DNA of 10,119 nucleotides from an uncultured candidate division Zixibacteria bacterium (GTDB taxonomy: Bacteria > Zixibacteria > MSB-5A5 > GN15 > FEB-12): contig CAWDXE010000002.1 in the NCBI GenBank assembly GCA_963806185.1, forward strand, positions 1 to 10,119, written 5' to 3'. The notes beneath the pieces are model-generated. The model had not been told where the DNA came from. It made no database searches and saw nothing but the letters and a program-made list of their open reading frames with translations. Both the position numbers and the translations under genes were made by a program. Numbering within the stretch: position 1 is the stretch's first letter; each line of letters starts with the position of its first letter. This document shows positions 970 through 10,119 of this stretch, one piece after another.

Positions 970-3540
970 ATGACACGCACCATCTTGCTCGCTTTGAGTC
1001 TTGCCCTTACCGCCCTATCCGCGGGTGCGCAGGACACAGCCCATTTCATGATCGAAGCGCTTGCCGGCCGAGATACGTTGGTGGCAGGGTATCCCACCAC
1101 AATCTATTTCGGTTTCGACAATCGAAGCGACGACACCATCAAGGTAGTATCGACTGCTTTCCGGATCTATTCTCCCAATGGTGCACATTTCGATAGCCTG
1201 ACAGCCCTTGGCTGCGATTACTCCTGCCCGAACTTCGATCGCGCCACGGCGACCGTGTTTCTCGATCATGACGGGATTGGCAACGACGTGGTATGGTACG
1301 GTGGCGTCGCCGATGTCGGCGGTTTGATGCCCCATGGGCAATACGCGCCAATGGGACTTCGTTTCAAGACGCGAGCCGAAGATATTGGCAAGTCCATTTG
1401 CATTGATTCTGCCATGGTCGCGCCAGTCGGGAAGTGGACCTGGAGCTGGTTGCGGCGCGACGGCTCACGCGTGACTCCTGAGTGGGGGGGACCGTACTGC
1501 TATACGATTGGCAATCCACCTCATCCGTATTTCTGGCGCTGTCCCGAAGCCATTTACACGCAATTCAATCAGGATATCCAATACCAGTTTGGGGCAAGTG
1601 TATTCGACACGCAAAAACGGAGATTCTGCGTCCTATCCGGCCCAGGGACCATTGACAGCATGAACGGATTCTGGCAGTCAGGGCCGCTGTCGGGTGGAAG
1701 ATACCCCTTGATAGTCTGCGTAACTGATGGGCATTCGTCGGACACGTGTGCGACACAAGTCGTTGTGTCTCCGTATAGCTTCTTTGTTATTTGCCCCAGT
1801 GCGCAGGCGGCTGCCATTGGGCGTACCAGTGAAGTGACTTTACATGTTCAGCCCGAAGAAGACCAGGTAATTTACTCCTTAGTGAGCGTAGGGGGAGCGA
1901 CGGGAGTTGTAACTCTGGAAAGAAATCTTGGACATGTCCAATACACGCCTTCGGAGGCCGATGCATTGCTTCCACAACCGATCGTAATGCGGTTTACAGC
2001 GACTGACGGCTTCATGACGAGTGGTTGCTCGCTTCTGTGGTATGTGCAAGGACCTGGAAAGTATCGCGTTGAAATTGGGTATGTTCCGGACCAGTTACAG
2101 GGGCAGTATGCGACGCTCCCCATCACCCTGACCAAGGCCGACACGATAGAGGGCCTCGGCGGCTTTGACCTGCTCCTCGCCTATGACAATTCGGCCCTGT
2201 CGTTTCAGAAAGCGTTCTCGGGCAGTATCTACGATAGTTGCGGCTGGGAGTACTTCACCTATCGTTTTGGCGCCAACGGCAATTGCTCTTCTGGCTGCCC
2301 GAGCGGCATGATTCGCATAGTCGGTGTTGCGGATACCAATGTTGGTGATCACCGCCCGGGCTGTCAACCGTCGCAGGTCGGCCAATTGCCGGTTACGCTG
2401 GCCAATCTAAAGTTTCTCGTCACTAACGACCGAACTTATGAGTGTCAGTTCGTGCCACTACGTTTCTTCTGGACCGACTGCACCGACAACACTTTTTCGA
2501 ATGTGATTGGCACCAAACTCTTTATCTCATCAAAGGTACAGGATTACGGCAACGACACGCCGATCGACAACGGTTCAATCGGCTTCCCGACCTACCTCGG
2601 CGCCCAAGATGATTGTGAGACAATGACGCTGAAGGCCGAAGTGGTTCGCAGCGTCGCCTACCAGAATGGCGGAATCAGGATCGCCTGTGCTGACTCAATA
2701 GAGGTTTGCCCGGAGAGTTGTGCTCCCTTTAGTGACCTCGGTCGGAACTATGCTGCTCAAGCCTACCTGATGATGCGTCACTTTATTTACGGAGAGTCAC
2801 ACACGGGCACCAACGGTGAGTGCACCTGTGCCTGGGACATTGACGGAGACGGCACCGCAGAGACTCTCATCGATTTCCAGATGCTCGTCAGGACGTTTCT
2901 CAGTGCCTCTGGTGCCTGCCACACCACCAGCGAACCACATCCAGGGACGTATTCATACTCAGCTGGGATACTTAGCGTAAGCGCTGACTCCGGGGTTGGT
3001 GCGGTATGGGTGACTGTCGAAGGTGAGATTACACCAGTACTGCTGGCCGCGAACATGACGATGTCGTACGCTTCGGACTCCGGCAAGACGCGCATCCTTG
3101 TATCTGATTACATGGTGAACTATGACTGGATCGAGTCTTTCAATGGAGCCGTACTGGACTTGGGCGGCGCCGGAATTCTGCAATTGGAAGCTGTCAATCC
3201 CTGTGGTGAGCGACTCTTGCTCGATCCCACCTACGCCTCCGAGAGCGAGTTCAACCTTCCCACCTCCTTCTCCCTCTCCCAGAACTACCCCAACCCTTTT
3301 AATCCGGTTACCAGTATTTGTTTCGATTTGCCTACCGCCGGCACCGTTAGTCTGCAGGTCCTCAACCTCCAAGGCCAAATTGTACAGACACTCGCAGCCG
3401 GCCAGAAATCAGCCGGGCGGTACACCGTTTCCTGGGACGGGAAAAATTTCAATGGCGAAAATGTGGCCAGCGGTATATATTTCTATCGACTCACTGCTAA
3501 CGATTTTATACAAACGAGAAAAATGCTGCTCATCAAATAG
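970..3540 (+). CDS. Large secreted Cys-rich multidomain protein: signal peptide, N-terminal beta domain, two cadherin/Ig-like domains, cohesin-like domain, degenerate dockerin-like module, beta-domain, C-terminal T9SS type A/FlgD-Ig-like sorting domain
   Basis: 856-aa ORF with SD. Signal peptide MTRTILLALSLALTALSAGA|Q. Ig/cadherin-like segments ending V.VTDG and FTATDG (about 1513-2050). Cohesin-like segment QGQYATLPITL...LGGFDLLLAYDNSALSF...LANLKFLV (about 2059-2688). EF-hand-like DIDGDGTAETLIDF (from 2836). C-terminal LSQNYPNPFNP...LNLQGQIVQTL...WDGKN...VASGIYFYRL...TRKMLLIK (about 3253-3537). Confidence 0.85.
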   Translation: MTRTILLALSLALTALSAGAQDTAHFMIEALAGRDTLVAGYPTTIYFGFDNRSDDTIKVVSTAFRIYSPNGAHFDSLTALGCDYSCPNFDRATATVFLDHDGIGNDVVWYGGVADVGGLMPHGQYAPMGLRFKTRAEDIGKSICIDSAMVAPVGKWTWSWLRRDGSRVTPEWGGPYCYTIGNPPHPYFWRCPEAIYTQFNQDIQYQFGASVFDTQKRRFCVLSGPGTIDSMNGFWQSGPLSGGRYPLIVCVTDGHSSDTCATQVVVSPYSFFVICPSAQAAAIGRTSEVTLHVQPEEDQVIYSLVSVGGATGVVTLERNLGHVQYTPSEADALLPQPIVMRFTATDGFMTSGCSLLWYVQGPGKYRVEIGYVPDQLQGQYATLPITLTKADTIEGLGGFDLLLAYDNSALSFQKAFSGSIYDSCGWEYFTYRFGANGNCSSGCPSGMIRIVGVADTNVGDHRPGCQPSQVGQLPVTLANLKFLVTNDRTYECQFVPLRFFWTDCTDNTFSNVIGTKLFISSKVQDYGNDTPIDNGSIGFPTYLGAQDDCETMTLKAEVVRSVAYQNGGIRIACADSIEVCPESCAPFSDLGRNYAAQAYLMMRHFIYGESHTGTNGECTCAWDIDGDGTAETLIDFQMLVRTFLSASGACHTTSEPHPGTYSYSAGILSVSADSGVGAVWVTVEGEITPVLLAANMTMSYASDSGKTRILVSDYMVNYDWIESFNGAVLDLGGAGILQLEAVNPCGERLLLDPTYASESEFNLPTSFSLSQNYPNPFNPVTSICFDLPTAGTVSLQVLNLQGQIVQTLAAGQKSAGRYTVSWDGKNFNGENVASGIYFYRLTANDFIQTRKMLLIK

Positions 3541-3706
3541 ATGGGCGGCCTGCTATTATTTCGCCAGTTAGCAAGGAGACTCACCAGCTTTTCCTCTCTG
3601 CTCACGAATTCGAGATCGACCCGCACACTTAGGCGGGCCCATGCTTTTCACCGCTTGGCAGGAGGTAGGTATGTCTGGTCAGTCCTCACACAAACTGCAC
3701 TCGTTC

Positions 3707-3711
3707 AGGAG
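3707..3711 (+). promoter_or_regulatory. Shine-Dalgarno site of the second secreted protein
   Basis: AGGAG at 3707-3711, 7 nt before the ATG at 3719, which begins a clean signal peptide. Confidence 0.65.
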
Positions 3712-3718
3712 ACTCATT

Positions 3719-5818
3719 ATGTGGCGAAACGCCCTGATTGTCTTAGTCGTTGCGACGCTGGCCGCCGGCGCCGCAAACGCGGCGACGTATGGATTCCGTA
3801 TCGAACCCGTTTACAACCAGCTCCAGGGACGGGAGGTAGAGGTCGACATCACCTGCTACACCTACCCGCAACAGCGAGTGCTGAATCTCTGGTTATCGGT
3901 CGCCTATGATCTGGAGGCTCTTAGCTTTGCCGGAGCAGTACCGCTCGACTCAAGTCTTGGCTGCAAGTGGGACATGTCCTACAACACATTCGGTCCGGTG
4001 GTCGACGGCCCCGACGGCAAACGATACGGCGTTGCCTCCGTTGCCTATGCCGGCGCCGGCCCCTACGGTTCTGCGCAGCAGTCCTGCCCCTTTGAAAACG
4101 GCGAAACGGCGCCTTTCACCATCGCGCGTCTCAAGTTTCTGGTATCAAACGATCGGGGGTATGAATGTGATACGCTTCCCCTTCGCTTTGTCTGGTTCGA
4201 TTGTGTCTCCAATGCGCTCGTGGATACCGGTTTCAATTTCCATCTGTCATCAGCGTTGATCGATCCGTTAACACAGACCGATATCCATGCCCCGACTCTC
4301 TTCCCGAGCTTCTTAGGGGCCCCGGATTCGTGCGAAATCCAATTCGATCCCGATTATGTCCGGGACATCGAGTTTACCAATGGTTATGTCCAGGTCATCT
4401 GCCCGGACACGATCGACTATCGCGGCGACATCAACTGCAACGGCCTCTCCAACGAAATCGCCGACTTCATCTATTTCGCCAAGTATTTCATTGAAGGCCC
4501 CTCAGCCTTTGCCAACACGGCCCAGTGTTCATTTCAAACTTCCGACCTCAATTGTGATGGTCTTGGTGCGCAGCTTGAAGACCTGGTGCGGCAGCTGAAT
4601 ATAGTTACGGGATACTGGCAGCCGGATCCGTGCGGGGGAGAAGGTCAGCTCTTTGGTTTGTCTTCTTACGTGGACGGGATACTCGCCGCCGAGAGTGTCA
4701 GCGTGTCGGCGGCTCATATCGTGGCCGATGGCAACGTCACGCCCGTATCGCTTATCGCGGATTCGGCTTTTGTTCTGGCCTATCAGTATCACGCGGACGG
4801 AGACACAACCGCGATCCTGATCCTTCCGAATCTGGCCGCTGTTGCGTTGGGTCAGCCATTACCCACGTTTACCGGTCCATTTCTCGACTTGGGAGACGCC
4901 GAAGTGCGCCACACGGTGCTGGTGAATCCCGATGCCCGACGGATCGGCAGTGAGCTTTATCCTCGCGGTGATCTCAACTGCAATGGCATGGGCTGGGAAT
5001 TTGCCGATATGATACAACTCGAGTATTACCTGCTGATGGGTGATACATCCCTCACCTGGCAGCCAAAATGCGGGTTGCGCGGCGCCGATGTCAACTGTGA
5101 CGGCCGGAAGGGGGGAGTCGATGATCTGGTCGCTCTCCTCGGGACTTTTCGAGGAGTCTTTTCTGAAGAGGATTGCCCACCCATTTTGCCTCCGCTGGCC
5201 GGTTCATTCACCTATGAAAACGATACTCTCAGTATTGACGGACCTGCCGTAACGTGTGTGCGTGTGGTCGTCTCCGGCGAGATCATACCGCAGTTGCTCT
5301 TGACGGACTCAATGGTCACGCTTGAATACTATTATCACTCGGTGGGTGATTCGACCGTAGTCTTGATGTTCTTGAGGTTTCAAGGATCAGCACCATCCGA
5401 ACCACTTTCCGGTTACACGGGACCGGTACTTGATCTTGGGGGAGCCGAGATCCAGACGCTTGAGCTGGTCAGCCCTGACGGTCGCCGAATTGAAGCCATG
5501 CCGACCGGTGCAAACAACGGCGATGACAATACATTGCCCAGTACCTATGCTCTCGACCAGAACTACCCCAATCCGTTTAATCCGTCGACTCAGATCAGCT
5601 TTAGCCTGCCCTCGGCCGGTGCCGTCAAGCTGACCGTACATAATGTCATGGGCGAAGTCGTCCGCACGCTCATTGACCGGCGCATGAATGCCGGGCGCTA
5701 CACAATGGAATGGAATGGCAAAAACGACAGCCACCAATCGGTCGCAAGCGGCATCTACTTCTACCGAATCTACGCCGGCGACTTCACCTCGACCAGGAAG
5801 ATGATGCTCGTCAAATAG
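3719..5818 (+). CDS. Secreted Cys-rich protein: signal peptide, cohesin-like domain, two tandem [dockerin-like + beta-domain] modules, C-terminal T9SS type A/FlgD-Ig-like sorting domain; paralog of the upstream gene
   Basis: The ORF track starts at 3641, but ATG 3719 has an SD and gives MWRNALIVLVVATLAAGAANA|A (699 aa). Cohesin-like QLQGREVEVDI...VAYDLEALSF...IARLKFLVSNDRGYECDTLPLRFVWFDC aligns by eye with the upstream protein. Dockerin loop pairs GDINCNG/SDLNCDG and GDLNCNG/ADVNCDG. C-terminal LDQNYPNPFNPSTQISFSLP...VASGIYFYRI...TRKMMLVK. Confidence 0.85.
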   Translation: MWRNALIVLVVATLAAGAANAATYGFRIEPVYNQLQGREVEVDITCYTYPQQRVLNLWLSVAYDLEALSFAGAVPLDSSLGCKWDMSYNTFGPVVDGPDGKRYGVASVAYAGAGPYGSAQQSCPFENGETAPFTIARLKFLVSNDRGYECDTLPLRFVWFDCVSNALVDTGFNFHLSSALIDPLTQTDIHAPTLFPSFLGAPDSCEIQFDPDYVRDIEFTNGYVQVICPDTIDYRGDINCNGLSNEIADFIYFAKYFIEGPSAFANTAQCSFQTSDLNCDGLGAQLEDLVRQLNIVTGYWQPDPCGGEGQLFGLSSYVDGILAAESVSVSAAHIVADGNVTPVSLIADSAFVLAYQYHADGDTTAILILPNLAAVALGQPLPTFTGPFLDLGDAEVRHTVLVNPDARRIGSELYPRGDLNCNGMGWEFADMIQLEYYLLMGDTSLTWQPKCGLRGADVNCDGRKGGVDDLVALLGTFRGVFSEEDCPPILPPLAGSFTYENDTLSIDGPAVTCVRVVVSGEIIPQLLLTDSMVTLEYYYHSVGDSTVVLMFLRFQGSAPSEPLSGYTGPVLDLGGAEIQTLELVSPDGRRIEAMPTGANNGDDNTLPSTYALDQNYPNPFNPSTQISFSLPSAGAVKLTVHNVMGEVVRTLIDRRMNAGRYTMEWNGKNDSHQSVASGIYFYRIYAGDFTSTRKMMLVK
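4421..5494 (+). repeat. Intragenic tandem duplication of an approximately 181-aa module (dockerin-like + beta-domain)
   Basis: Copy 1 starts RGDINCNG at 4421 and ends FTGPFLDLGDAEVRHTVLVNPDARRIG (about 4948). Copy 2 starts RGDLNCNG at 4964 and ends YTGPVLDLGGAEIQTLELVSPDGRRIE (about 5494). Offset is 543-546 nt. Similarity is visible at the protein level. Confidence 0.8.
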
Positions 5819-5835
5819 CCACTGAGATCATCGCC

Positions 5836-5878
5836 AAAAATAAAGCCGTCAGATTGTTCACCTGACGGCTTCTTCTTT
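5836..5878. terminator. Bidirectional rho-independent terminator between convergent transcription units
   Basis: Perfect 10-bp stem AAGCCGTCAG (5843-5852) / CTGACGGCTT (5862-5871) with a 9-nt loop. It is flanked by AAAAATA upstream (U-tract on the - strand) and CTTCTTT downstream (U-rich on the + strand). Confidence 0.85.
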
Positions 5879-5898
5879 GATCTGGAATTTGTCGTCGC

Positions 5899-6717
5899 CT
5901 AGTACGACTCTTCCGCGTTCGGATACTTGCCGCTCTTCACATCCTCAATGTACTTCGTCGCCGCGTCGGTAATCTGCGGGCTCAGGTTGGCGTATTCGCG
6001 CACGAACTTCGGTTTGAACCCTGGTTCGCGAAGTCCGAGAATGTCGGTGATCACCAGCACCTGCCCGTCACAGTCCGGCCCGGCGCCGATGCCGATAGTT
6101 GCGGCCGTCTGTAGTGACTTCGTAATCTCGGCGGCAACATTCGATTCCATCAGCTCCAACACCATTGAGAAGCAACCGGCTTCTTCCAGTGCCTTTGCCG
6201 ATTCGAGCAGATATCTCCGCGAGCGATCCTCACGCCCCTGCACCTTCGGTCCGCCGAATCGATGCATCGATTGCGGCGTCAGGCCAATATGCCCCATGAC
6301 CGGTATGCCGACCTCAACCAGTCGGCGAATTGTCTCGGCCATCTCCATCCCACCTTCGATTTTCACCGCCTCCGCGCCGGCCTTCAGAAATGCGCCGGCG
6401 TTTTCGATGGCAGTTTGAATCGACGGTTGAAACGAGAGGAAGGGCATATCCGCAACCAGCAGTGCCCGCTCGGTCCCGCGTGCGACAGCCGACACGTGCG
6501 CCAGCATGACCTCCATGGAGATCGGCAGCGTCGTGCGGTACCCATGAATAACGTTGGCCGCGGAGTCACCCACGAGCAGGCAGTCGACGCCGGCCTGGTC
6601 GAGGAGCATCGCGGTGAAATAATCATACGCGGTCAGGACAGCAATTTTCTCGCCCTCGGCCTTCTTCTGGACAATACCCGGGACGGTGATCTTCTTGCGT
6701 CGATGCATGACAGACAT
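5899..6717 (-). CDS. panB: 3-methyl-2-oxobutanoate hydroxymethyltransferase
   Basis: Motifs LTAYDY, LLVGDS, ADMPFLSF, GAEAVKIEGG, MGHIGLTPQS and IGIGAGPDCDGQVLV; 272 aa. The start could alternatively be the ATG at 6708. Confidence 0.97.
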   Translation of the reverse strand: MSVMHRRKKITVPGIVQKKAEGEKIAVLTAYDYFTAMLLDQAGVDCLLVGDSAANVIHGYRTTLPISMEVMLAHVSAVARGTERALLVADMPFLSFQPSIQTAIENAGAFLKAGAEAVKIEGGMEMAETIRRLVEVGIPVMGHIGLTPQSMHRFGGPKVQGREDRSRRYLLESAKALEEAGCFSMVLELMESNVAAEITKSLQTAATIGIGAGPDCDGQVLVITDILGLREPGFKPKFVREYANLSPQITDAATKYIEDVKSGKYPNAEESY

Positions 6718-6730
6718 GACTTGCTTTCGG

Positions 6731-7396
6731 TTATTCCTTGCGGGAAAGGTTGCCGGCCGGGACGTAATACTTCTTGCCGCCGATCGGCCGATGAATTTGT
6801 TCGATCAGGTCGTCGAAATGCTCCGGTGTATGAACAAAATCAATATCGTCGGTCTTGACCACCAAAAGCGGCGTGTCAGCGTAGTGAAAGAAGAAGTAGT
6901 CGTACGCTTTGTTGAGGCTGTCAACATAATCAAAATCAATCGTTCGCTCAAATGTGAGGTTGCGCATCTTGATTCGTTCGAGCAATACTGCCGTCGACGC
7001 CTGCAGGTAGATCAGCAGGTCCGGGCGCGGCACGTCCTTGGCCAGCACCGGTGCGATCTTATTGTACAGGTTGAGTTCGCGCTCGTTGAGATTGATAGAC
7101 GCGAAGATCGAGTCCTTGGCGAACAGGTAGTCGGCTACGATTCGCTTGGCGAACAGGTCGCGCGTCACCAACTGCTGCTGCTGGTCGAACCGGGAGATGA
7201 GGAAGAAGAGCTGGCAGGGGAGAGCGTACTTCTTCCGGCTCTTGTAGAAGTCAACCAGGAACGGATTCTCGAATACCGGCTCCTGAAGCAGATCAGCTTC
7301 CAGCCTTTCGGCCAGCATGCGGGCAAAGGTCGTTTTGCCCACACCGATCACCCCCTCGACCGCGATAAAATTGGGTTCGAAACTATCGTGTGACAT
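6731..7396 (-). CDS. Deoxynucleoside kinase family protein (dgk/dck-like, folK-associated type)
   Basis: P-loop IAVEGVIGVGKTT, EPVFENPFLVDFY, QLFFLISRFDQ, PDLLIYLQAS and LERIKMRN..FE lid; 221 aa. It overlaps the end of folK by 14 nt. Confidence 0.9.
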   Translation of the reverse strand: MSHDSFEPNFIAVEGVIGVGKTTFARMLAERLEADLLQEPVFENPFLVDFYKSRKKYALPCQLFFLISRFDQQQQLVTRDLFAKRIVADYLFAKDSIFASINLNERELNLYNKIAPVLAKDVPRPDLLIYLQASTAVLLERIKMRNLTFERTIDFDYVDSLNKAYDYFFFHYADTPLLVVKTDDIDFVHTPEHFDDLIEQIHRPIGGKKYYVPAGNLSRKE

Positions 7397-7886
7397 GCTC
7401 TTTGTACAACAACACTCGCGCTCGGTCTTGTTCGGTCAAATAACCGGCTATCGGTTTGTCTTTGCCCGGATGTATGACATCCGGCGCTATCTCCAGAAGC
7501 GGCACCAAAGCAAACGGCCGTCTCAGAAGCTCCTTGTGCGGGATCGTGAGTCGATCGGTGGCAATCTGATGATTGCCGAAAAGGAGAATATCCAGATCGA
7601 TCGTGCGCGGCAGCCGTTTGCCTTTGTCGGTGCGACCGAACGCATGCTCGATCTCTTCAAGCGATGCCATAAGCGCCCCCGGTGTAAACTGGTATTCGGC
7701 CTGCACGACTTGATTCAGAAACGGCGGTGCATCGGAGGCCATGCCTTCGGCTTCGGAGTGATAAATCGATGAGATCCGAATTACTTCCAGCCCTTCGACC
7801 TCGGCCATCTGTTGTCTGGCTGTTTCGAGATACTGCTCCCGGTTACCCAGATCCGATCCCAGCAGAATGTATACGGTCTCGGCCAT
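7383..7886 (-). CDS. folK: 2-amino-4-hydroxy-6-hydroxymethyldihydropteridine diphosphokinase (HPPK)
   Basis: YILLGSDLGNRE, FLNQV, IEHAFGR, PRTIDLDIL and LTIPH...RPFALVPLLEI motifs; 167 aa. Confidence 0.96.
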   Translation of the reverse strand: MAETVYILLGSDLGNREQYLETARQQMAEVEGLEVIRISSIYHSEAEGMASDAPPFLNQVVQAEYQFTPGALMASLEEIEHAFGRTDKGKRLPRTIDLDILLFGNHQIATDRLTIPHKELLRRPFALVPLLEIAPDVIHPGKDKPIAGYLTEQDRARVLLYKEHVTR

Positions 7887-7892
7887 GAAACG

Positions 7893-8288
7893 TCACCTTT
7901 CAGTGGTATCGAGCATTGCGGTTGTGTTCCCCCGATAGCGCGTCATTTGCACTTCGATATGGCGAATGTGGCCCGCGATCGGCGGCGTCAGCTTGCGCAC
8001 ATGCAAAGTTACCCGTTGCAGGGGAAACTTGTCAAGCAGGACCGACGCAATCCTTCCGGCCAACGCTTCGACCAGTTTGAATTGCGTTTGTTCGACCACG
8101 TTGCGAATCGTCGTAAAGACGGCGCTATAATCGACGGTGTCGGGGAGGCTGTCGGTTTGGGAAGATTTGGTCAGATCGACTTCCAGTTCGGCGTCAACTT
8201 CATACATGCGACCGGTTTCCTGCTCGGCGGCGATGGCGCCGTGAAACGCGTAGAACGACATGCCGACCAGTCGTATGCAGTCACTCAT
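7893..8288 (-). CDS. folB: Dihydroneopterin aldolase
   Basis: FYAFHGAIAAEQETGRMYEVD, DTVDYS, FKLVEALA and VRKLTPPI motifs. The start is placed at ATG 8288, with GGAG at 8298-8295 lying 6 nt upstream, rather than the TTG at 8300. It overlaps the stop of the upstream gene. Confidence 0.94.
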   Translation of the reverse strand: MSDCIRLVGMSFYAFHGAIAAEQETGRMYEVDAELEVDLTKSSQTDSLPDTVDYSAVFTTIRNVVEQTQFKLVEALAGRIASVLLDKFPLQRVTLHVRKLTPPIAGHIRHIEVQMTRYRGNTTAMLDTTER

Positions 8289-9462
8289 CATGATCTCCAA
8301 TCGTCAGCAGGTTAAGACGGCGACTGACCCTTGCGGCGGCCTCCTTGTATGCCGTTGCACCCGCGGTGAGCGAGAAGCGCATATACCCTTCGCCGAGTTC
8401 TCCCATGCTGCTGCCGGGAACGGCGAGTATCCGATAGCGACGGTAGAGCAGACGCGCCAGGGTGGCCGAATGGGTCCTTCGATGAATGCGAGCCCAGAGG
8501 AATGGCACCGTCGACGAACTGGTCGCCTCAAGATTCAGCAGTGACATCAAGGTACGCGCCTCAGCATGATTCTCCCCCAAAAGTTGCCGAACGGACCTCA
8601 GATACTGGTTGGGATATTCTTTGATGGCTTGGCGGGCGAATTCTACCAGATAGACCGGGAGTTGCACGGGGAAGAGCGACTTGACGGCCCGAAGTCCCTC
8701 GAGTGCCTGACGACTGCCGACGGCAAAACCAAACGGCATACTCGGCAGGCCCAGCACCTGCGAAAACGAATACAGTTCCACTCCCGCCCGTTTTCCTCCT
8801 TCTACTGCCAACAAGGATATCGGCTTGCGATCGGGGATCGATTGGTGCGAGGCATCGTTGACAATCAGGAAATTCTCCTTGGCCGCGGACCAGACCAGTC
8901 TGGATAGATCCTTCTCGTTGAGTTCCGCTCCGGTTGGATCGTGCGGGGAATTTAATATGAACAGCGGCGCTATCCTTGTCAGTTGACCGGCCAGACGGTC
9001 AAGCTGTGGACGCCAGTCGGTCTTTGCCGAAATGAGGTAAGGGATGGGTTCCCCGCCACAGGCGGCGATTACCCGACGATAATGGGGCAAACCGACTCCC
9101 GGGACGAAAGCCGGATCACCCTGATCGACAAGACTCATGGTCAGCGCGAACAGGAGCGACGGTACGTCGGCGCCAACATACACTTCTTTGACACTGGCAA
9201 GGCGAACATGGAAGTGGCGTTCGAGCCACGCCATCAACTCCTCTTTCAGGCCCTCGATTTGGGCCGCAGTCGCAGCGGACAGATCGGCCTGAGTGAGACT
9301 GGAGTCCGGCGTGCGTGTGATCGGCCACTGAAGGTTGGCCAGGTCGATCAATTTTGCTCGTCGCAACAACGGCTGTCGCGGCAGTATTCGGGCAAAATCC
9401 GTGAGTTCGGGTGCCATCTGGTAGAGGCGGTCGGCCTTTTCGATAAGGATCTTCTTTACCAT
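8281..9462 (-). CDS. Aminotransferase class I/II (fold type I, DapL/AspC-like) family protein lacking the catalytic lysine; probable pseudoenzyme
   Basis: 393 aa. The scaffold is recognisable: LVDQGDPAFVP, AACGGEP, FILNSPHDPTGA, FLIVNDASH, GVELYSFSQVLG...FGFAVG, PFLWARI, ILAVPGSSMGELGEGYMRFSL. The SxSK lysine position holds Gln. Confidence 0.85.
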   Translation of the reverse strand: MVKKILIEKADRLYQMAPELTDFARILPRQPLLRRAKLIDLANLQWPITRTPDSSLTQADLSAATAAQIEGLKEELMAWLERHFHVRLASVKEVYVGADVPSLLFALTMSLVDQGDPAFVPGVGLPHYRRVIAACGGEPIPYLISAKTDWRPQLDRLAGQLTRIAPLFILNSPHDPTGAELNEKDLSRLVWSAAKENFLIVNDASHQSIPDRKPISLLAVEGGKRAGVELYSFSQVLGLPSMPFGFAVGSRQALEGLRAVKSLFPVQLPVYLVEFARQAIKEYPNQYLRSVRQLLGENHAEARTLMSLLNLEATSSSTVPFLWARIHRRTHSATLARLLYRRYRILAVPGSSMGELGEGYMRFSLTAGATAYKEAAARVSRRLNLLTIGDHDE

Positions 9463-9464
9463 TG

Positions 9465-10118
9465 TCAGCGTTCCCCCGTTTTGTCGTCCGTCGGGTTATT
9501 CAACGCTAGCCTCAGACTCACGAGTCGATCATAATCTTCCTTCGGAATCCGACCTACATTCCCGAGTTGGAGGGCCAGATGGCAAATCTTGGCGTATTGC
9601 TCCACCGTCTCCAGTCGGTTGAACGCTTCTTCAAGGCTCCGGCCCAGGGTCAGGACCCCATGATTTCGCAAGAGAAAGGCGTTGTGATCCGCAATGTAGG
9701 GAGCGAGCGAATGCGGCACGGCTTCGGTTCCCGGCGGGGCATACTCAGTCGTGGCAATTGGCCCGACGAAGACAATGACCTCCGGCAGGCAGTCATAGTC
9801 GAGCGGTCGGCCGGCTACCGCGAATGCGGTCGCACACGGAGGGTGGGCATGGACACAGGCAGAAATGTCAGGGCGGGCGCGGTATACAAACAGGTGCATT
9901 GCCATTTCTGACGATGGCCGTCCGTCTCCGCTCAATTTCCGACCGTCGAGATCAACCGTGATCATTGTCTCTGCCGACATGCGACCTTTGGCCACTCCCG
10001 AGGGGGTGATCAGAATTGTGTGGCTGTCCAGCCGAATCGAGATATTCCCGTCCGACCCGGCGATGAACTTGCGGGTATCGAGTCGCCTGCCGATTTCCAC
10101 GATCTGTTGTCGGGCTGT
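9465..10118 (-). CDS. Class II aldolase/adducin family protein (FucA/MtnB-like), 5' end outside the window
   Basis: GSDGNISIR, ITPSGVAKG, PSSEMAMHLFVY, VHAHPP and LLRNHGVLTLG; the catalytic Glu and three Zn-binding His are present. The frame stays open upstream of the GTG at 10100 (TARQQIV) to the window edge. Confidence 0.92.
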   Translation of the reverse strand, partial: TARQQIVEIGRRLDTRKFIAGSDGNISIRLDSHTILITPSGVAKGRMSAETMITVDLDGRKLSGDGRPSSEMAMHLFVYRARPDISACVHAHPPCATAFAVAGRPLDYDCLPEVIVFVGPIATTEYAPPGTEAVPHSLAPYIADHNAFLLRNHGVLTLGRSLEEAFNRLETVEQYAKICHLALQLGNVGRIPKEDYDRLVSLRLALNNPTDDKTGER

Positions 10119-10119
10119 A

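Follow-up and report, generated by a model that had tools for sequence, protein, structure and literature searches.

An apparently undescribed family of lysine-less, DapL-derived proteins in a folate and pantothenate gene cluster of Zixibacteria

Introduction

In fold-type I enzymes, transamination is very probably impossible once the lysine is missing together with the phosphate cup and the cross-subunit loop. ColD and E1 dehydrase are PMP enzymes that carry a His for the Lys, and in them this His and the phosphate site are conserved; the MocR/GabR regulators possess a wHTH domain and bind PLP via the lysine. The known pseudoenzymes of the aminotransferase fold are for the most part partners of an active paralogue, as exemplified by the SPT1 subunit of serine palmitoyltransferase, which is described in PMC6148460 as having no PLP lysine. 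For LL-diaminopimelate aminotransferase (DapL) of V. spinosum, the active-site set given in PMC7113581 consists of G44, K111, Y134, N189, K251, N294 and R390. Another enzyme of the diaminopimelate (DAP) pathway, DapF, moonlights with RppH in a binding role that is independent of catalysis according to PMC13728532. Here we analyse a Zixibacteria gene whose product has retained the fold and lost the active-site residues, and which is under purifying selection, lies in a conserved operon and shares gained residues with its relatives.

Results

The gene, here called DapL-star for a DapL-derived pseudoenzyme gene, occupies 8281..9462 on the minus strand of the window, i.e., the whole stretch of 10,119 nt that was analysed, which is all of contig C2 of its genome. 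The 393-aa reading frame is intact and full-length, as a first-pass annotation of this DNA had claimed, and all residues cited there (Q235 with codon CAG at 8758-8760, P243, D175, D203, H206, R362 and GADVPS at 97-102) were found in place. The protein matched PF00155 with 97.5 bits (threshold 19.7) and no other Pfam family, and its predicted structure is a confident fold-type I aminotransferase (pLDDT 90.4, pTM 0.88; residues 1-10 with pLDDT < 50). The best Foldseek match of the model was BacF (TM 0.81). In an alignment with the solved structure 6l1l (titled BacF), Q235 and P243 fall on the SFSKTFNMAGWR motif, at its Lys and its Arg. A reuse of the aminotransferase fold for regulation, as in MocR/GabR, may be a point of likeness, but the 393-aa protein has neither a wHTH or other DNA-binding domain nor the PLP lysine.

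LL-DAP aminotransferases are the best NCBIfam families, with scores far under the cut-offs (PRK09276, 134.7 bits vs 507; TIGR03540, 130.5 vs 593), and DapL families were the nearest relatives in a search of 1.84 billion proteins. In the ESM Atlas, the closest cluster is found most often in Ca. Zixiibacteriota. DapL-star is a descendant of DapL of the PRK09276/TIGR03540 type but does not qualify as a DapL itself. It shares with DapL the fold, the dap/folK-linked position and the residues R362, D203 and Y128, but it has lost the Lys, the phosphate Arg, GSKEG, G44 and the N-x-D-S-G loop, and its Zixibacteria hosts have no dapB. Some of these Lys-less proteins carry the name 'LL-diaminopimelate aminotransferase' in sources, an enzyme label that is probably wrong.

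Full-length orthologues are present in 56 of the 61 genomes of the order. Matches at 1e-25 were obtained in 135 of the 151 genomes of the phylum, including at least one genome matched only via an intact paralogue, and 31 of 33 genomes from a second phylum, to which a Ca. Latescibacterota record led, contain a related Lys-less family. Residues were counted in 117 orthologues (56 from the same order, 31 from other Zixibacteria orders and 30 from the second phylum; 21-49% identical to DapL-star of this genome) and compared with 88 intact relatives. The orthologue in genome G116 (L111:~4700-5963) is split into frames of 102 and 321 aa by a frameshift or an assembly error and was excluded from these counts.

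At Q235 (8758..8760, minus strand), the site of the PLP Schiff-base lysine, Lys was found in none of the 117 orthologues vs 88/88 intact relatives. Thus, neither chance nor sequencing error explains the loss, and recent decay was rejected as well; the first-pass annotation, which had argued against a single error from this genome, had understated a loss that is clade-wide. The phosphate-binding Arg, replaced here by P243 (8734..8736, minus strand), is kept in 4/117 orthologues (3 of the 56 from the same order) vs 88/88. GADVPS at residues 97-102 (9157..9174, minus strand) stands in place of the GSKEG phosphate/DAP loop, from which S100, K101 and E102 persist in 13, 10 and 6 of 117 orthologues vs 82, 87 and 87 of 88 intact relatives; the loss of both sites had been claimed from the single sequence and extends across the family. 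Residues 263-267 (8662..8676, minus strand) replace the N-x-D-S-G cross-subunit loop (N263 2/117, D265 1/117 and G267 5/117 vs 81, 83 and 87 of 88). G68 (1/117 vs 88/88) and H106 (7/117 vs 86/88) are nearly gone too, and Y125, E208 and S266 are also lost; overall, the lost residues are present in 81-88 of the 88 intact relatives. When the V. spinosum DapL set is mapped by motif, that protein itself not being aligned, positions 44, 101, 235 and the 263-267 loop are lost, 128 and 362 are kept and 175 is changed here.

Not every substitution seen in this genome is typical of the family. The O3' Asn/Tyr positions 175 and 206 are both altered here, as the first-pass annotation had listed, and D175 and H206 are indeed present; they are minority states, however, and mostly represent drift of this genome. 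N175 occurs in 80/117 orthologues (53/56 in the same order and 77/87 in Zixibacteria, with Asp in 27/30 second-phylum copies), and Y206 in 58/117 (40/56 in the same order, absent from 30/30 in the second phylum). In the same order, the residue at 235 is mostly Tyr (73%) or Phe (18%), so that Gln235, like D175 and H206, is a local variant. Residues seen at this position in the family include Tyr, Phe, Thr, His, Val and others. The family resembles ColD and E1 dehydrase in being fold-type I without the lysine; unlike in those enzymes, the phosphate site is lost and His at 235 is limited to 13% of one group. No conserved substitute Lys, His or Cys column common to all three dead groups was found in the 117 orthologues. 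A replacement lysine was likewise rejected, as only 2/117 have any Lys within residues 230-240, and it is not conserved. With the PLP Lys and the phosphate site missing in every orthologue examined, DapL-star is predicted to be catalytically dead; with the cross-subunit loop gone as well, it is very probably unable to transaminate.

Other parts of the old pocket remain. The pyridine-ring Asp D203 (8854..8856, minus strand) is kept in 114/117 orthologues and the carboxylate-binding Arg R362 (8377..8379, minus strand) in 117/117, in line with the first reading of the sequence, and Y128 is retained in 109/117. Such conservation, despite 21-49% identity, would be expected of a PLP-free ligand sensor, in which R362, D203 and Y128, joined in Zixibacteria by N175 (77/87), bind an amino acid, a 2-oxo acid or an unphosphorylated heterocycle (pyridoxal, pterin) and an open/closed motion signals to a partner. 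Structural positions are just as invariant, however (E229 116/117, G354 and P176 each 117/117); G44, which adjoins the carboxylate site, is found in 0/87 Zixibacteria copies and is mostly Phe in the order, and the second phylum has departed from N175 and Y206. We therefore consider a sensor rather unlikely, albeit worth keeping in mind.

DapL-star is under purifying selection. Its dN/dS was 0.10-0.12 in the four unsaturated of seven within-genus pairs (three were saturated), with 0-0.30 for neighbour genes, and a median of 0.24 was obtained over 351 non-independent pairs of the second phylum. The value of about 0.1 is below 1, the outcome that the first-pass annotation had proposed to look for, and an intact gene without catalytic residues that is held by selection in this way is what defines a pseudoenzyme. 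A relic in slow decay, retained solely because it is translationally coupled and has to fold harmlessly, would fit the observations that DapL-star evolves faster than folB, the deoxynucleoside kinase gene (dNK) and panB in most pairs and that its clean deletion was tolerated in at least four lineages. This reading is largely refuted by the dN/dS, by the full length kept across about 18 families in two phyla, where a split copy (G116) and a match interrupted by an internal stop (G162) were seen, and by gained residues common to the dead groups, and appears very improbable. Eight such gained positions are common to four dead groups and rarer in 180 intact proteins: aliphatic 6, basic 9, basic 147, N197, aliphatic 230, P320, basic 341 and acidic 355.

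A mixture-model tree built without the active-site columns separated 29 dead from 38 intact rows at SH-aLRT 97; neither this tree nor the clade test included seven scattered Lys-less singletons. A single origin of the dead clade is likely, though not proven, since the core dead clade received a support of only 44 in a simpler-model tree and long branches are present in the mixture-model tree. Further Lys-less DapL-like proteins (P0070, P0072, P0085, P0097, P0106, P0135 and P0143) group with intact ones in a tree, which suggests that their Lys loss was independent. P0203, an intact DapL, already carries a KKIVFERADRL extension and the RRAG motif of the dead family and possibly serves as a model for the ancestral state.

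The first-pass annotation had proposed, among other roles, that the protein pairs with an active DapL-like paralogue and forms the inactive half of the heterodimer. An inactive partner of an active fold-type I enzyme has a precedent in SPT1/LCB1, likewise a fold-type I protein conserved without its PLP lysine (PMC6148460), and the genome of DapL-star does contain other class I/II aminotransferases. SPT1, however, is of a different subfamily, DapL-star being bacterial, and has an obligatory active paralogue, whereas an intact DapL-like paralogue exists in only 14/151 Zixibacteria genomes and 0/84 in the order, nests among intact proteins in the tree and is not sister to the dead clade. The nearest paralogue in the genome itself is 24% identical, and the residues that would be lent to the active site of a partner (the G68 region and N263-G267) are lost. 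We thus rejected pairing with a DapL paralogue as a general explanation, and a heterodimer of any such kind is the least probable of the readings, with hardly a chance of being correct. The intact DapL-like paralogue (families f11, f12 and f16) often adjoins a GKRP/MurQ-like SIS gene in dapB-less genomes (L109, L110, L112-L116, L128), a pairing that suggests peptidoglycan or DAP recycling.

On the minus strand of the window, the gene order is class II aldolase (9465..10119, its frame open at the contig end), DapL-star, folB for dihydroneopterin aldolase (7893..8291; TIGR00525 above cut-off), folK (7383..7886; TIGR01498 above cut-off), the deoxynucleoside kinase gene (6731..7396; PF01712) and panB (5899..6717; TIGR00222 above cut-off), followed by a terminator-like hairpin with a 13-pair stem (5842..5872), which is a consensus match only, as 3 such sites were found vs 4.0 expected in shuffles. 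The tight spacing described at first sight was confirmed: 2 nt separate the aldolase stop (9465-9467) from the start codon (ATG) of DapL-star, and folB, starting after GGAG with an ATG at 8288 or 8291, overlaps the DapL-star stop by 8-11 nt. The gene after DapL-star is folB in 112/117 loci (median gap of -4 nt in the order), dNK in 4 and another gene in 1, and the cluster often runs on as panC-panD-nucleotidyltransferase-LytR_C. The aldolase lies directly upstream in 71/87 Zixibacteria loci. It was dropped as an obligatory partner because 45 of the 116 loci with sufficient flanking sequence, among them all 30 second-phylum loci, have no aldolase gene immediately before DapL-star. On the plus strand, the window encodes two large secreted-looking paralogues (970-3540 and 3641-5818) with C-terminal FlgD_ig/Por_Secre_tail matches and most of their length devoid of other Pfam matches, as well as overlapping frames at 2-391 and 249-815, the second with a TPR match, which are possibly one frameshifted TPR gene.

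A metagenome search with a Lys-less query returned 80 loci, all with intact lysine. Among the 65 with at least 700 nt of downstream flank (15 were excluded), folK or folB follows the intact dapL in 46, and folB in only 3; upstream, where 47 of the 80 loci were scorable, dapB was found in 25 and dapF in 3. Judging from this gene order, the folK-linked position is inherited from active dapL, and the synteny of DapL-star can therefore reflect shared transcription only. The adjacency from which the first-pass annotation had suggested translational coupling is real, but as a sign of partnership with FolB or the aldolase it is weakened by this inheritance and by the inconstant aldolase. DapL-star was missing from the folK locus in 5/5 genomes chosen for having no match (two of them single-contig), with folB, folK and most neighbours remaining; this is more in keeping with an accessory function than with a step of the pathway.

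The class II aldolase sits where dapB usually precedes dapL and stays beside folB when DapL-star is deleted. FolB releases glycolaldehyde, which the aldolase might recycle. In the second phylum, DapL-star is immediately preceded by a gene with a low-scoring match to the cpn60/TCP-1 family (L129:5458-7122, L130:6208-7839), with PfkB and IF-2B/MtnA-like genes located downstream (L129, L130).

The DAP pathway of the hosts is incomplete. Neither dapB nor ddh was found in the 151 Zixibacteria genomes searched (0/151 each) and dapA exceeded its cut-off in 2/151, so that the THDP supply via dapA and dapB on which DapL depends was not seen there. In contrast, dapF is present in 148/151 (in this genome on contig C7 at ~951410-952250; L245:9409-10248, minus strand), and the DNPR motif of MurE was recognized in 3/4 Zixibacteria and 1/1 second-phylum genomes examined, the motif not being located in the fifth. 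The presence of DapF and a DNPR-type MurE without dapA, dapB and ddh leaves a gap in cell-wall precursor supply, which some other source of DAP, or of a replacement for it (e.g., lanthionine), would have to fill. DAP is not necessarily the substrate of DapF in Zixibacteria, since a DapF homologue is described as a histidine racemase in a DAP-less host (PMC11602996).

The gap raises the question of whether DapL-star is still an enzyme that, by lysine-independent chemistry, possibly supplies the missing LL-DAP in Zixibacteria. DapF, whose Ser/Ser form is reported to be active (PMC13728532 citing Lamer 2025), is a reminder that a verdict of lost activity needs caution when a single residue underlies it. 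Position 235 of DapL-star is variable, however, unlike a conserved alternative nucleophile, and the phosphate and DAP sites are gone; five genomes without the gene (G086, G114, G057, G158 and G038) keep dapF, and second-phylum genome G195 possesses dapA-dapB-dapH together with a dead copy elsewhere. Residual catalysis is thus distinctly improbable.

In the loci compared (L245-L252, L273-L296), the DapF catalytic pair is Ser/Ser in this order, in f5 and in 3/4 second-phylum genomes, Cys/Ser in f11, f12, f16, f18 and part of f8, and Cys/Cys in f6, f9, f10 and f17; by sequence, the mixed Cys/Ser state looks like an intermediate. The idea of Ser/Ser DapF as a second pseudoenzyme was dropped in view of its reported activity. 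Of 8 dapF loci inspected, 5 (L245, L246, L250, L251, L252) have an intact class I/II aminotransferase gene upstream of dapF, at a distance of up to about 1 kb. This dapF-linked enzyme, in the own genome at L245:10520-11720 (contig C7, 952528-953499), is a candidate for DAP-related transamination.

The gained residues are partly basic. In the small-domain segment of residues 326-346 (8425..8487, minus strand), which includes the gained R341, the mean net charge was +4.0 to +5.2 in the dead groups, -0.1 in 80 intact metagenome proteins and +3.2 in 8 intact Zixibacteria paralogues; a basic residue at 341 is present in 81-100% of the dead groups vs 13%. At the N terminus there is a conserved basic extension, KKIxIEKADRLYQ (9415..9462, minus strand), in which aliphatic 6 and basic 9 are over-represented in each of the four dead groups. 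The median pI of Zixibacteria copies is 9.4-9.5, and the operon neighbours are acidic (median pI of 5.0 for FolB and 5.4 for FolK). A protein binding nucleic acid, e.g., the mRNA of its own operon, or the membrane through such a gained basic surface (9, 147, 341) would have a DAP-pathway precedent, as DapF-RppH is presented in PMC13728532 as moonlighting in RNA decay. Second-phylum copies are near neutral, however (pI 6.7), intact Zixibacteria paralogues are basic too, the protein has no DNA-binding domain, and apart from one tRNA, no Rfam regulatory RNA was found in the window and 7 loci. Binding of this kind is therefore improbable.

Discussion

What DapL-star does now can be narrowed more easily than named. 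The earlier suggestion of a PLP-independent, repurposed protein stood in its general form, the gene being conserved and selected without the PLP lysine, and fell in its heterodimer version. Our leading but tentative reading, to which we give somewhat less than an even chance, is that selection maintains DapL-star as an accessory protein devoid of catalysis, whose basic surface would bind and tune one of the operon's enzymes, FolB or FolK being the most likely. An ancestral dapB-dapL-(folB)-folK-pan cluster would have lost DapL catalysis once; the THDP supply would then have been lost in Zixibacteria, or rerouted via the acyl pathway in G195, and the non-catalytic role would have preserved the gene. 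As read from sequence, bulky residues in the same order (mostly Tyr/Phe 235, Phe 44, Ile 100) may plug the old pocket, and the N-terminal extension with Arg residues of the small domain may form a face for acidic FolB or FolK.

Such an accessory role is consistent with the constraints gained in the N-terminal arm and small domain, and with folB being the tightly coupled neighbour of DapL-star (112/117) vs 3/65 for intact relatives. Against it, a pure scaffold need not keep R362, D203 and Y128, the basic character is not unique (median net charge of +8.5 in intact Zixibacteria paralogues and -2 in second-phylum dead proteins), and the N-terminal extension and RRAG motif already exist in intact P0203.

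A bolder and decidedly doubtful proposal is that DapL-star is the fossil of an unrecognised moonlighting activity of DapL itself, in which DapL binds and regulates FolK/FolB, so that the supply of amino acids for the cell wall is linked to the synthesis of folate and CoA. That job alone would have been kept by two phyla, and the DAP (or substitute) for DapF and MurE of Zixibacteria would be made without DapA, DapB, DapL and Ddh. DapF-RppH would be the nearest parallel, also a DAP-pathway enzyme with a catalysis-independent binding role (PMC13728532), for DapL-star a predicted one; DapF, however, stays catalytic, has a different fold and has RppH as an identified partner, whereas any partner of DapL-star is putative. 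Were DapL moonlighting true, regulation of FolK/FolB by DapL would be the reason for the widespread dapL-folK cluster.

Full-text literature searches, with most subscription journals and supplements outside their scope, found no description of this family. The sequences point to a real and apparently undescribed pseudoenzyme family, arguing strongly for lost catalysis and faintly for the new function. For pseudoenzymes of the aminotransferase fold, a bacterial family that stands alone and is conserved in two phyla would represent a new setting. Since some of its members are named as the active aminotransferase, reconstructions of lysine and peptidoglycan synthesis for these lineages may be wrong. 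Furthermore, DapL-star, FolB and FolK are small soluble proteins, which makes a second role of DapL at the dapL-folK locus directly testable.
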